Positions 3,279-54,905 of a stretch of DNA of 64,000 nt are shown in pieces. Position numbers and translations under genes: made by a program. Numbering within the stretch: the first letter of the stretch is position 1; each line of letters begins with the position of its first letter. This stretch comes from Clostridia bacterium (GTDB lineage Bacteria > Bacillota > Clostridia > Oscillospirales > CAG-272), in NCBI GenBank assembly GCA_017482355.1, contig JAFUNJ010000002.1, positions 11,092 to 75,091 on the forward strand, in the 5' to 3' direction. The notes below the pieces were generated by a model. The model ran no database searches. It was not told where the DNA came from and was given only the letters and a program-made list of their open reading frames with translations.

Positions 3279-3412
3279 GGCTCCCTTGTGTAAAGGGAGC
3301 TGTCGACGAAGTCGACTGAGAGATTGTTATAAAAACGTTTCTAACTTTTTACAATCCCTCAGTCATTTGCTCCGCAAATGCCACCTCCCTTTACACAAGG
3401 GAGGCATTTACG
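3279..3412. repeat. Hairpin-chain intergenic repeat, family 2 (inverted copy of 9987-10182)
   Basis: Chain of stem-loops: ctccctt/aagggag, gtcgac-gaa-gtcgac (3302-3316), catttgc-tcc-gcaaatg and cctccct/agggagg. The reverse complement aligns by eye with 9987-10043 and 10133-10176. Confidence 0.75.
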
Positions 3413-8427: not shown

Positions 8428-8720
8428 TTTTACCACTTTTCTTTGCTCGTGCAAAGAAAAGTTCCAAAAGAAAGCACGCCAAGGGGAAAACCGATAAAAA
8501 CGCGTTCGCGTTTTTTATACGTTTTCCCCTTTGGAAACCCCTTTCGTTTTAAGGAAGATTTACCACGTTGTCTTGCCTTCCCCTCAGGGGAAGGTGGCGG
8601 CGAAGCCGTCGGATGAGGTGTAGGTTGCGAAGCAACCGTGTGTTGAAGGAAAGTAACATCGTTTTTGCACGGAAGGGGGACCCCTTCCCCACGAGAATGA
8701 TTTTATATTTTTTCGCAATA
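8428..8720. repeat. Modular hairpin-chain intergenic repeat, family 1
   Basis: Nested and serial stem-loops at 8436-8461, 8494-8518, 8576-8594, 8596-8610 and 8623-8637. Shares modules with 10832-11075, 39190-39487, 43403-43759 and 54741-54905. 8610-8666 is a perfect reverse-complement copy of 39283-39339. Confidence 0.85.
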
Positions 8721-9986: not shown

Positions 9987-10182
9987 CGTATTTAGCCTCC
10001 CTCCGGGAGGGAGGTGACATTTGCGCAGCAAATGACGGAGGGAGCCCGCGATGTAAATGATTACGAAGAAGATACCCTTCTCATCCAAGGCGGATCCATA
10101 AATATTTGTCATCAAAAGTATCTCGCCCGAAGGCTCCTCCACCGCCTTCGGCGGAGCCCCCTCCCAGAGGGAGCCACAAAGG
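9987..10182. repeat. Hairpin-chain intergenic repeat, family 2
   Basis: cctccct-ccgg-agggagg, catttgc-gca-gcaaatg, ccgcc-ttc-ggcgg and ctccc-aga-gggag. Both ends align with the reverse complement of 3279-3412. Confidence 0.75.
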
Positions 10183-10252: not shown

Positions 10253-10828
10253 TTGGTTAATAAAACAAAAAAATTTATAATTCATCCTTCTACGATAATT
10301 TTTTTAATTATTTTGTCGATTTCGGGCGTTGGGTACGAGGGTATCATCACGCTTTTCTGTGCGCTCGTTCACGAGCTTGGACACTATTTTGCCGCGAAGA
10401 TCTGCCGTGCGGCGCCGACAAGGATAGTCATTTATCCTTTTGGCGCGGATATGGCGTTGCCTATCGGTTTGCGGTCTTACAAAGCCGATATTTTTATAGC
10501 TCTCTGCGGCCCTACGCTTAATCTTATTCTCCTTTTTCTCGGAATAACACTTTCGCTCGGGGAATTTTTCTGCGCCTGCAATCTCGCGCTTGCCTTTATA
10601 AACCTGATGCCGATACGTGGGCTTGACGGCGGAACTGTTTTGGAGAATCTTCTCCTTACGTTTCTAACGCCGAACACGGCGGAAAGGGTGCTTTTGGGAT
10701 CAACGTTTTTTATCCTCCTTTTCCTCTATTTATTCTCGGTTTATTTTCTGTTTTCGGGCGTGGGTGATCCGTCGCTGTTTATTATCGTTTGCGCGATGTT
10801 TGTATCGTCGGTGGTGAGGAGAAGATAA
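10253..10828 (+). CDS. Site-2 protease family (M50) membrane metalloprotease, short SpoIVFB-like form
   Basis: HELGH (HExxH) in a TM helix and NLMPIRGLDGG (NxxPxxxLDG). 191 aa with no CBS domain. Non-ATG start in the ORF track. Confidence 0.75.
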   Translation: MVNKTKKFIIHPSTIIFLIILSISGVGYEGIITLFCALVHELGHYFAAKICRAAPTRIVIYPFGADMALPIGLRSYKADIFIALCGPTLNLILLFLGITLSLGEFFCACNLALAFINLMPIRGLDGGTVLENLLLTFLTPNTAERVLLGSTFFILLFLYLFSVYFLFSGVGDPSLFIIVCAMFVSSVVRRR

Positions 10829-10831
10829 GAT

Positions 10832-11075
10832 TCATTTGCAGGGGAGGTGTCTCCCTCTCGCATAAAACAATGTTACATCGTTTTAAAACACCTCATTCAC
10901 CGCTACCGCGGCCCCCTTCCCCAAGGGGAAGGCAAGACAACGTGGCAAAGCTTCATTAAATCGAAAGGGGGTTCCAAAGGGGAAAACGTGTGCAGAATTT
11001 TGCCTTTGCAAAATTCAAACCCGTTGTCACCTTGGTGCCGTTCTTTGCTGTAGGTTTGCGAAGCAAAACTACTCA
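10832..11075. repeat. Modular hairpin-chain intergenic repeat, family 1
   Basis: Contains aaaacaatgttac (10864-10876), ccttccccaaggggaagg (10915-10932), aaatcgaaagggggttccaaaggggaaaacgt (10958-10989), hairpin 10995-11016 and gtttgc-gaa-gcaaa. Confidence 0.85.
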
Positions 11076-15878: not shown

Positions 15879-16394
15879 TATATTCAGTTTTTTATTTCCT
15901 TATTTTGTGTTTCTTAACTTATCTTGTTTCCGACTCCGCATGATCTATATGAATCATTTTTCATTTGCGTAATCAAGCTTTCCAACTTCTTCCCTTACGG
16001 CTCGGAAACTCTTTTCTTTTTCGGTTTTCTCTTTTCTTTCAGATTTTCGGTAAGCTGTTTTTTCTCACCCGCGGCTGCGGCTTTTTCATCTCTTAACTTA
16101 CCGTTTATCTTACTTTTTCCTTTTGTGCTCGGCACTTACGGTGTTAAGAAACGATCACGCATTTACGGGTGAATACTGCTGTTCATCTTGTGCCAACGGT
16201 ATCACCACTTTCATTTTTATTCTGCTATTTCCTTTAGCATCTTCATTTTAGCACAACTTTTTCTGTTTGTCAATAGGTTTTTTATAAAATTTTACTAAAA
16301 TTTTGTGAAAATCAGTTTTTGTTAACATCGTGTAACTTTTTAGACGATTCTATTGACATGGGCGACCGACTTAGTGTATAATTAATATGTTAGT

Positions 16395-39189: not shown

Positions 39190-39487
39190 AAAATTCTGCC
39201 ACCCTTGTAGGGGGCGACCTCTCGGAACCCCAAAAATTCGCGTTCGCTCGTTTCGGGGAACCCCTACCTCGATGCCCCGTATAAAAACGATGTTACTTTC
39301 CTTCAACACACGGTTGCTTCGCAACCTACACCTCATCCGGTCTCGAGTAGTTTGTGCTTCGCACAACCTACCGCTCAACCACCTTCCCCAAGGGGAAGGC
39401 AAGGCGGCGTTCGCTTTACGCGTTATGTAGATAACAGAGTGAGCGTGGGAGCGGCGGACGGTCGGGGACGCCCGTTCCTACAAATTA
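39190..39487. repeat. Modular hairpin-chain intergenic repeat, family 1
   Basis: Modules gtaggggg..., cggggaacccctacctcga (39254-39272), aaaaacgatgttac (39283-39296), ggttgc-ttc-gcaacc, ccttccccaaggggaagg (39382-39399) and gtgagcgtgggagcggcggacggtcgggg (39439-39467). Confidence 0.85.
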
Positions 39488-43402: not shown

Positions 43403-43759
43403 AGCGTGAGCGCGGGAGCGGCGGACAGTCGAGGCGAGGGGGTCCCCGAAACGAGCGAATGCGAGTTTTGGGGGTTCCCGAGGTTGCCTGTCCCTAAAAA
43501 TCGACGTGGCGAAGCTTCGCCCGAGATTCCGCCGCGCATACGCGCGAACCCCAAAAGCTCGTTGCATTCGCATTTGGGAACCCCGCCGCTTCGGCGCCCT
43601 GCGGGTTCGACTTCGGACTTCGTCCTGCGCTCAGAATGACACGGGCAATCGAAAGGGGTATCCAAAGGGGAAAACGTGTGAAATTTGCTACGCAAATTTC
43701 ACGGTTTGCCTCTTGGCGTGTTTCTTTGGTCACCTTTCTTACACGAGTAAGAAAGGTGA
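43403..43759. repeat. Modular hairpin-chain intergenic repeat, family 1 (longest copy)
   Basis: gtgagcgcgggagcggcggacagtcgagg (43406-43434), ggcgaagcttcgcc palindrome, aatcgaaaggggtatccaaaggggaaaacgt (43647-43677), 11-bp hairpin 43678-43702 and 12-bp hairpin 43730-43759. Confidence 0.85.
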
Positions 43760-54730: not shown

Positions 54731-54740
54731 TATTGTAAAG

Positions 54741-54905
54741 AAAAAAGCACACATTTTCCCCTCCCCAAACCCCTTTCGATTTAAAGAAGCTTTGTGACGT
54801 TTAATTGTAGGGACGGGCAACCTCGGGAACCCCCAAAGCTCATTGCATTCGCTTCGGGGAACCCCTACCTCGACCGTCCGTTACTCCCACGTCCATTATA
54901 TCCGC
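54741..54905. repeat. Modular hairpin-chain intergenic repeat, family 1
   Basis: Reverse-complement copy of aaatcgaaagggg...ggggaaaa (54751-54783), gtagggacgggcaacctcgggaaccccc, cggggaacccctacctcga (54855-54873) and cctcgaccgtccgttactcccac (54868-54890). Confidence 0.85.

Follow-up and report, generated by a model that had tools for sequence, protein, structure and literature searches.

BoxC, PIT, and TMECO repeats have been known since the 1990s and are found in hundreds of bacterial genomes. To our knowledge, no function, origin, or enzyme has been assigned to these repeats, and we know of no assigned role for DUF559, a very large protein family. In this study, two intergenic elements were analyzed in a stretch of 64,000 nucleotides (nt) from a Clostridia bacterium (assembly GCA_017482355.1, contig JAFUNJ010000002.1, positions 11,092 to 75,091), hereafter the window. 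One element lies between miaB and mutS, and the other lies beside hemW. The two are members of sister repeat families, designated F1 and F2, and are not copies of one family. As neither copy contains the DUF559 open reading frame (ORF) of full-length relatives, both represent the gene-less form. They probably belong, as non-autonomous elements, to a gut Clostridia superfamily of small repeats with two-fold symmetry, which are spread or replaced as DNA.

The TMECO consensus is CCCTCNCCC N3-6 GGGNGAGGG N3 GGGNGAGGG, and TMECO elements are intergenic, without strand bias, and located at hypervariable loci with no mobility gene nearby (Holder et al. 2015, PMC4666352). The F1 and F2 elements resemble BoxC, PIT, and TMECO in that three blocks follow one another in order, namely, a pyrimidine arm, a purine arm, and a G-rich mirror of the purine arm. 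Moreover, both groups are G/C-rich, strictly intergenic, multicopy, and without strand bias, and their loci are unusually rearranged among close relatives.

Architecture of the F1 and F2 repeats

F1 is a two-fold symmetric repeat of approximately 125 bp that is able to form one long hairpin as an inverted doublet of hairpin units. Between AAA on one side and TTT on the other, its layout is GCCTCCCTT-GTGTA-AAGGGAGG, TG, H2, (A/T)C, GGAGGGATTGT, an AT-rich centre of 0-60 nt, ACAATCCCTCAG, H3, and CAGCTCCCTTTACACAAGGGAGCC, where H2 and H3 are variable hairpins and the left and right terminal hairpins are denoted H1 and H4. This asymmetric architecture was common to 24 copies of the genome to which the window belongs (G000) and recurred in 47 further copies of other species. 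The window copy lies 16 nt past the miaB stop and 53 nt ahead of the mutS start, and its ends form a 27-nt inverted repeat (3276-3302/3382-3408, 93%). As a single DNA strand, it folds at -45.3 kcal/mol (z = -13 versus shuffles), and this very strong fold is due to its palindromic build.

An earlier reading, made from the sequence only, had described the two stretches as inverted copies of one hairpin-chain family. The strings quoted there are present at the positions given, and a repeat finder confirmed that both stretches are alike (36-nt block at 3355-3390 and 10008-10043, 92% complementarity). The repeat family is real and has many more copies than the two described, but its two supposed members are divided between F1 and F2. 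The limits also required revision, as 3406-3412 and 9987-9994 were found to be flank. Among the neighbors named, MutS, MiaB, and HemW were borne out; the M50 label was not, as the ORF at 10253-10828 had no NCBIfam match (E <= 1e-10).

The modules of F1 differ strongly in conservation. Mean pairwise identity was 0.96 for H1, 0.95 for the inner repeats, and 0.95 for H4, and it was 0.60 for H2, 0.65 for H3, and 0.49 for the centre. In 51 parsed F1 copies, 42 distinct sequences were found at H2 and 37 at H3, and folds with at least 4 pairs were formed by 88% (mean z -3.2) and 98% (mean z -5.0) of them, respectively. Thus, the earlier observation of a hairpin that is kept while its stem is replaced, made on two copies, holds family-wide at both positions. 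The covariation check agreed: in 17 H3 variants of equal length, 94% of cells were paired compared with 72.5% in shuffles, and 20 double changes were counted compared with 5.5, which was reached by 0 of 500 shuffles.

The interpretation placed on this observation, namely, that selection acts on the fold and not on the primary sequence, was not upheld, since the terminal hairpins and the inner repeat are 95-96% identical across species although the synonymous sites of the enclosed ORF are saturated. Nor does the pattern resemble compensatory drift in steps. The H2 and H3 variants behave as a pool of alleles that is common to copies, species, and even families and is re-assorted among copies; the H2 allele GCATTTGC..GCAAATGAC, for example, is common to F1 and F2. 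The orthologous F1 copies of G000 and its relative G014 are approximately 93% alike, with changes confined to the loops and the centre. Therefore, the stems do not hypermutate in place.

The inner motif of F1 is the purine arm of the terminal hairpin, reversed but not complemented. Arm and mirror changed together: counted in halves, AAGGGAGG was accompanied by GGAGGGA in 53 cases, AAGGGAGC by TGAGGGA in 35, AAGGGGGC by TGGGGGA in 9, and AGGGGAG[CG] by GAGGGG in 5, the last change being present in both end types. This three-way covariation points to a recognized DNA element. By inspection, the mirror rule also holds in F2, in a further family F3 (GGGAGAGG/GGAGAGGG), and in the families of G036 and G021, while it is imperfect in the CCTTCCCC family (6/8 positions). 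Judged from its letters, the mirror motif is the signature of an intrastrand triplex or H-DNA-type element, in which H2 would act as the connector. From the outside in, a half-element consists of a pyrimidine/purine terminal hairpin, a connector hairpin of free sequence, and a G-rich mirror of the purine arm. Table 1 summarizes the modules of both copies.

Table 1. Modules of the F1 and F2 copies in the window.
Feature	Position	Strand	Remark
F1, gene-less complete copy, 127 nt	3279..3405	-	minus strand is the ORF direction of full-length relatives
F1 'left' terminal hairpin H1 (ORF direction), GCCTCCCTT-GTGTA-AAGGGAGG (pyrimidine arm, loop, purine arm)	3384..3405	-	mean pairwise identity 0.96
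F1 variable connector hairpin H2, stem CATTTGC/GCAAATG	3363..3381	-	same allele in the F2 copy at 10018-10034
F1 inner repeat CTGAGGGATTGT, G-rich mirror of purine arm	3351..3362	-	ribosome-binding site in ORF-bearing relatives
F1 AT-rich centre	3328..3350	.	place of the 122-amino-acid (aa) DUF559 ORF in full-length relatives
F1 second inner repeat ACAATCTCTCA	3317..3327	-	full-length relatives have the final ORF codons (..QSL..) here
F1 variable hairpin H3, GTCGAC-TTC-GTCGAC	3302..3316	-	variable-hairpin analysis
F1 'right' terminal hairpin H4, GCTCCCTTTACACAAGGGAGCC	3279..3300	-	inverted-repeat match, module identity
F2, gene-less complete copy, 181 nt	9995..10175	+	divergent spacer of hemW and the downstream gene
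F2 terminal hairpin GCCTCCCTCC-GGGAGGGAGG	9995..10014	+	in relatives encodes the ..KASLREGGG.. tail of the DUF559 ORF
F2 variable hairpin H2, CATTTGC-GCA-GCAAATG	10017..10036	+	allele as in the F1 copy
F2 inner motif GGAGGGAGCC, mirror of purine arm GGAGGGAGG	10037..10046	+	mirror rule, read from sequence
F2 conserved centre, ~85 nt	10047..10131	+	aligns among all 8 copies and with the tail past the DUF559 ORFs of G004/G014
F2 second inner repeat GGCTCCTCCA	10132..10141	+	F2 copy comparison
F2 variable hairpin H3, CCGCC-TTC-GGCGG	10142..10154	+	F2 copy comparison
F2 terminal hairpin, slightly degenerate, AGCCCCCTCCCAGAGGGAGCC (family consensus AGCTCCCTCCCGGAGGGAGCC)	10155..10175	+	F2 copy comparison

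Further repeat families, of the GGGGAACCCC, CCTTCCCCAAGGGGAAGG, and GGGGAAAACG types, occupy other spacers of the window (8519-8609, 10899-10989, 39224-39339, 43437-43689, and 54739-54865). Elsewhere in the genome, repeats of these types abut F1 copies.

The DUF559 gene and the spread of the repeats

Neither the mirror-repeat (triplex-type) grammar nor the link to a DUF559 nuclease gene was part of the sequence-only reading. The link became apparent from the spacing of the two terminal hairpins, which falls into two classes of approximately 90-130 nt and 420-430 nt. Copies of the long class enclose an ORF of 119-123 aa (122 aa in a full-length element of approximately 450 bp). The ORF starts a few bases past GGAGGGATTGT (0-3 nt in the loci read), with the inner repeat as its ribosome-binding site (RBS), and it ends inside ACAATCCCTC and H3 (..KQSLSQLR*). 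The full-length form has its gene for a putative 122-aa DUF559 (Vsr-fold) nuclease set exactly between the two inner motifs, one of which supplies the RBS and the other the last codons.

DUF559 (Pfam, E 1e-29 to 1e-31, residues 8-114) is the sole Pfam domain of this ORF. By sequence, the ORF matched PDB 3hrl (E 1e-11), and a structural model, whose predicted local distance difference test score (pLDDT) was only 68, retrieved 3hrl, 3r3p (the catalytic domain of I-Bth0305I; template modelling (TM) score 0.75 on target), and Vsr in Foldseek. Residues D51, E62, D64, and H68 were invariant in 15 sequences. The ratio of nonsynonymous to synonymous substitution rates (dN/dS) was 0.04-0.14 with synonymous sites mostly saturated, and the ORF is under purifying selection. 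At least 7,979 protein clusters were related to one F1 ORF, and these carried only the names 'endonuclease domain-containing protein' or 'very-short-patch-repair endonuclease'. No description of a pairing of DUF559 with a repeat was found in the literature searched on DUF559, in which one table row lists DUF559 among predicted inversion targets.

The association of this gene with hairpin-chain elements extends beyond F1. In 763 kb around 120 hairpin matches, 11 DUF559 ORFs were found, all of them between or beside hairpins. Among 40 relatives, which are not independent of each other, nearly every DUF559 gene was part of a hairpin-chain element, of one family or another, or lay next to it, and the stop codon was often in, or directly after, the terminal hairpin. 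Inverted repeats of at least 14 nt bracketed 10 of 28 DUF559 genes compared with 0 of 140 control placements. Element and DUF559 occurred together in 13 of these relatives, the element only in 4, DUF559 only in 3, and neither in 20; DUF559 was the only gene that tracked the repeat. The DUF559-linked families differ in the terminal hairpin, which begins with CCTCCCTT.., CCTTCCCC.., CCTCGCCC.., CCTCCCTC.., or GCCCTCT... In the case of F2, the element is homologous to the tails of DUF559 genes in G004, G011, and G014, where the first F2 hairpin encodes ..KASLREGGG...

The G000 assembly comprises 1.69 Mb in 22 contigs and is 77% complete. All genomes compared were binned assemblies, where repeats assemble poorly, and the gene calls behind the context analysis were crude ORF calls. 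The sequence-only reading had called for a search for further copies, and this search returned 29 F1 loci in G000, of which 24 were near full length (72-85% identity), together with about 7 full F2 copies. Consequently, it is practically ruled out that the two spacers are alike by chance or stem from one recent duplication, as dozens of copies exist in the genome and hundreds across species, and nothing in favor of this reading emerged after testing. Among the 40 relatives, F1 was present in 12 of 18 congeners, 3 of 6 genomes from other genera of the family, and 2 of 16 from other families of the order. In addition, the exact 24-nt F1 end CACCTCCCTTTRCACAAGGGAGGC was found in more than 120 public contigs labeled Oscillospiraceae, Faecousia, Acutalibacteraceae, Eubacteriales, and others.

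All copies scored in G000 were intergenic (31/31), and their spacer types matched the background. In tandem gene contexts, 9 F1 copies were co-oriented with the genes and 6 were opposed; hence, no strand bias was seen. That the repeats act as DNA and not as RNA is shown by three features: they are symmetric, they have no orientation bias, and their presence or absence varies among species. A function as RNA, which the sequence-only reading had considered, is unlikely; besides orientation and two-fold symmetry, Rfam returned no match even at E up to 1. A terminator or promoter was also considered and set aside, as none was called in the F1 copy of the window.

The elements are A-rich on one flank and T-rich on the other, and the flanks are often mutually complementary. 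No direct repeat indicating a target-site duplication was found at 69 junction pairs. The sole candidate duplication seen was an 8-nt direct repeat, TATGTTGT, around an insert of ~185 nt (F1 plus ~55 nt) at C7:296468-296593 of G000, relative to G008. Within G000, contig C7 carries 12 F1 copies at 233-355 kb, and contigs C10 (292 kb), C4, C1, C2, and C20-22 and the region C7:1-233 kb have no F1 or F2 and few hairpin repeats. This uneven distribution reflects either regional clustering or a bin of mixed sources. Identical elements with identical flanks were found at C19:676-818 and C7:233773-233915, and the assembly appears redundant here, with C19 repeating a portion of C7.

Family switching at shared sites and rival explanations

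Orthologous spacers were compared among the congeners. Each one examined differed, with flanks that are 90-95% alike; matched control spacers were not scored. The mutS-miaB spacer is empty in four congeners (G002, G006, G007, and G016) and holds other families in G011, G004, G008/G014, G003, and G010/G015. Moreover, families alternated at the same nucleotide. At the junction ending in GCGTAAAAGT, the occupant is F1 in G000, F2 carrying an identical H2 allele in G004 and G014, and F3 in G015; at the junction ending in TTTTTAAT, it is F1 in G000 and G014 and F3 in G004. These are natural cases of one family replaced by another, and such switching is better explained by in-place replacement or conversion than by independent hits. 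A clean pair of empty and filled sites was not obtained, as the spacers were too variable. The best cases were an ambiguous GGCTTCC in G008 and a solo F3-type hairpin, GGCTCCCCCTTTGGGGGAGCC, in G004 (G004:C15 ~16050-16100, L231) at the site of the G000 F1 copy C7:233782. This solo hairpin is possibly a footprint or a landing pad.

An unusual composite was seen at locus L186 of G003 (G003:C34, 1431-2052), where a left half-element with RBS is followed by a 128-aa DUF559 ORF with a divergent tail and a complete gene-less F1. At the site of this composite, sister species have an unrelated short spacer with a terminator-like hairpin.

On the preferred explanation, the repeats would spread and replace one another at intergenic sites through cut-and-repair or recombination. 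The conserved terminal hairpin and the mirror motif would be the recognition target of the spreading process, and the connector hairpins and the centre would be mere structural spacers that are swapped as modules. A DUF559 nuclease that is encoded by a resident full-length copy and acts in trans is the leading candidate for the partner enzyme, though only a tentative one; the arrangement would be analogous to RAYT and REPINs, with an unrelated enzyme. It may be, by an equally tentative extension, that DUF559 nucleases are the missing partners of BoxC/PIT-type repeats, each lineage recognizing the hairpin and mirror motif of its own family, cutting, and driving copying, replacement, or movement.

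Several results weigh against this explanation. Recent movement was sought, and no sign of it was found; at 72-85% likeness, the copies of any one genome are old, the sole trio with 98% identity (G011) has common flanks, and identical ORFs occupy one fixed locus across samples. Hence, the comparison showed no fresh movement. Part of the phyletic association is inherent, as the repeat encloses the ORF, and four relatives (G006, G008, G013, and G022) have the repeat but no DUF559. An F1-type ORF was not found in G000 at its 77% completeness, nor in several high-copy genomes (G011, G023, and G014), and the only DUF559 gene of G000 belongs to another family and contains an in-frame TGA. No nuclease activity, cut site, or target duplication (69 junction pairs) was seen, and in the study of Holder et al. 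(2015, PMC4666352), a stable TMECO triplex was not found in vivo. The DUF559 gene of G000 is located at C14:63758-64078, with a CACCTTCCCCTGAGGGGAAGGC hairpin ahead and gyrA just downstream, and several congeners share this arrangement in synteny, a RAYT-like gene being located at a distance of 3-4 kb.

The rival that survives best reverses the roles of repeat and gene. The palindromic repeat would be primary and spread by another agent, DUF559 would be a homing-type selfish gene invading its pseudo-palindromic centre, and the gene-less copies would be uninvaded targets. We consider this rather doubtful. The position of the ORF, exactly at the dyad between GGAGGGATTGT and ACAATCCCTCC, fits such an invasion, as do a copy without any centre (L144), which is a near-perfect palindrome, the persistence of gene-less copies in genomes without DUF559, and the solo terminal hairpin at one orthologous site. 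Furthermore, the homing nuclease I-Bth0305I, the closest characterized fold relative, is dimeric, and its cleavage site is pseudo-palindromic (PMC3239194). However, approximately one ORF per family per genome was found versus tens of gene-less copies, which would be occupied if homing were efficient. The ORF of F2 and that of G003 are next to a complete element instead of being enclosed by one, and the protein has no NUMOD-type DNA-binding region as in I-Bth0305I. As for gain or loss of the ORF at one locus, the ORF-bearing composite of G003 had no gene-less counterpart in its relatives (one site examined).

It is also conceivable, though unlikely, that the repeats are of the repetitive extragenic palindromic (REP)/REPIN type and moved by a RAYT-like (HUH Y1) transposase, with DUF559 as an unrelated passenger. 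The REPIN-like inverted pair of hairpin units without target duplication is in line with this, and G000 contains two RAYT-like genes (C14:67633-67875 and C2:74891-75190; NF047646, E ~1e-18, below the curated cut-off). However, both are followed by ordinary terminators, neither is flanked by F1 hairpins, and no RAYT-like or IS200 gene was found in the 763 kb around the 120 hairpin matches. Among the 40 relatives, repeat and RAYT-like gene occurred together in 8, the repeat only in 9, and the RAYT-like gene only in 4. RAYT-like genes were not found in the repeat-bearing G027 (98% complete, 20 matches), G023 (94%, 26 matches), G011, G014, and G036, some of which are near-complete and repeat-rich, and were present in G034 and G037, both of which have no repeat; a GTAG tag is also missing. 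Accordingly, RAYT was rejected as the main partner on flanks, neighborhood, and phyletic pattern. An IS200/IS605 parent was rejected as well, as the one IS200 TnpA of G000 (C7:169403-169759) has unrelated end hairpins.

A similarly low probability is given to the host keeping the elements for a local function, such as stopping transcription in both directions, protecting mRNA ends, marking a nucleoid or topology site, or serving as a recombination hotspot that generates variation in the spacers, with spread as a by-product of ordinary recombination. Old copies retain their terminal and inner modules at 95% identity, and continuing constraint follows from this. The copies are also strictly intergenic and near gene ends, T runs follow the ends in other species (45-48/69), and the loci are unusually rearranged in the same manner as TMECO loci (PMC4666352). 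However, the window copy received no terminator-like call, the G000 copies have no T run, and PIT elements had neither promoter nor terminator activity in the earlier work to which a passage of PMC4666352 refers. Moreover, the repeat is dispensable, as 6 of the 18 congeners searched yielded no copy and four have an empty mutS-miaB site. The embedded nuclease gene would also be left unexplained.

The gene-less, DNA-level superfamily thus remains our preferred explanation for both stretches. The locus family offers a gene-less and a gene-bearing form with identical ends, and through F1, a long-known class of orphan repeats in bacteria gains a candidate partner enzyme. Should the nuclease prove to act on the repeat that carries it, this would define bacterial DNA of a new kind, either mobile or self-maintaining, and a source of intergenic hypervariability in gut bacteria would be explained. 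It would be a repeat-and-enzyme system parallel to REPIN/RAYT, with an enzyme of another class and, possibly, recognition of triple-helical DNA. Otherwise, the repeats are sequence-constrained, structure-rich DNA whose maintenance must be explained in another way.

Comparison with known repeat and nuclease systems

Like the REP/REPIN-RAYT system, F1 consists of inverted pairs of short hairpin units that are intergenic and without target duplication, and each family has approximately one enzyme gene, enclosed in the corresponding repeat, and many gene-less copies. Unlike that system, in which the enzyme is an HUH tyrosine transposase, the F1 gene encodes a Vsr-fold nuclease of PD-(D/E)xK type; no GTAG tag is present, and RAYT-like genes neither flank nor track F1. 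Miniature inverted-repeat transposable elements (MITEs; Correia, RUP, and BOX types) share with F1 and F2 a length of 120-190 bp, terminal inverted repeats, long-hairpin potential, and modularity. A longer protein-coding relative with the same ends is a further likeness of F1 to MITEs, but here it encodes only the DUF559 nuclease and no known transposase. F1 and F2 also differ from MITEs in that no target-site duplication is seen and families replace one another at the same junction.

I-Bth0305I, a Vsr-like 'EDxHD' homing endonuclease (PMC3239194), is comparable to the DUF559 ORF in its catalytic fold and pseudo-palindromic setting, and a similar selfish-gene lifestyle of the DUF559 gene is plausible. 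In contrast, the DUF559 ORF has 122 aa and no NUMOD or helix-turn-helix (HTH) region, and unlike homing endonuclease genes, it is located not in an intron, intein, or conserved gene but inside a dispersed intergenic repeat.

BoxC, PIT, and TMECO are the nearest to F1 and F2. The DUF559 gene of E. coli K-12, ycjD, ends in a pyrimidine/purine hairpin whose loop contains the stop codon; 170 nt downstream of ycjD, past a degenerate copy of the 3' end of the gene, a canonical TMECO is found. In the same region (1351039-1351860, L237), the start region of ycjD is within an 18-bp perfect hairpin. The F3 hairpin (CCTCGCCC..GGAGAGG) is nearly the E. coli TMECO sequence, and only F3 approaches the consensus; F1 (CCTCCCTT/AAGGGAGG) and F2 (CCTCCCTCC/GGAGGGAGG) do not fit it. 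The second loop is 3 nt in TMECO, whereas F1 has a hairpin of 17-25 nt of free sequence at this place, and the units of F1 and F2 are paired, inverted around a centre. Finally, full-length copies of the present repeats contain a protein gene in this centre, whereas the TMECO study reported no nearby mobility gene.

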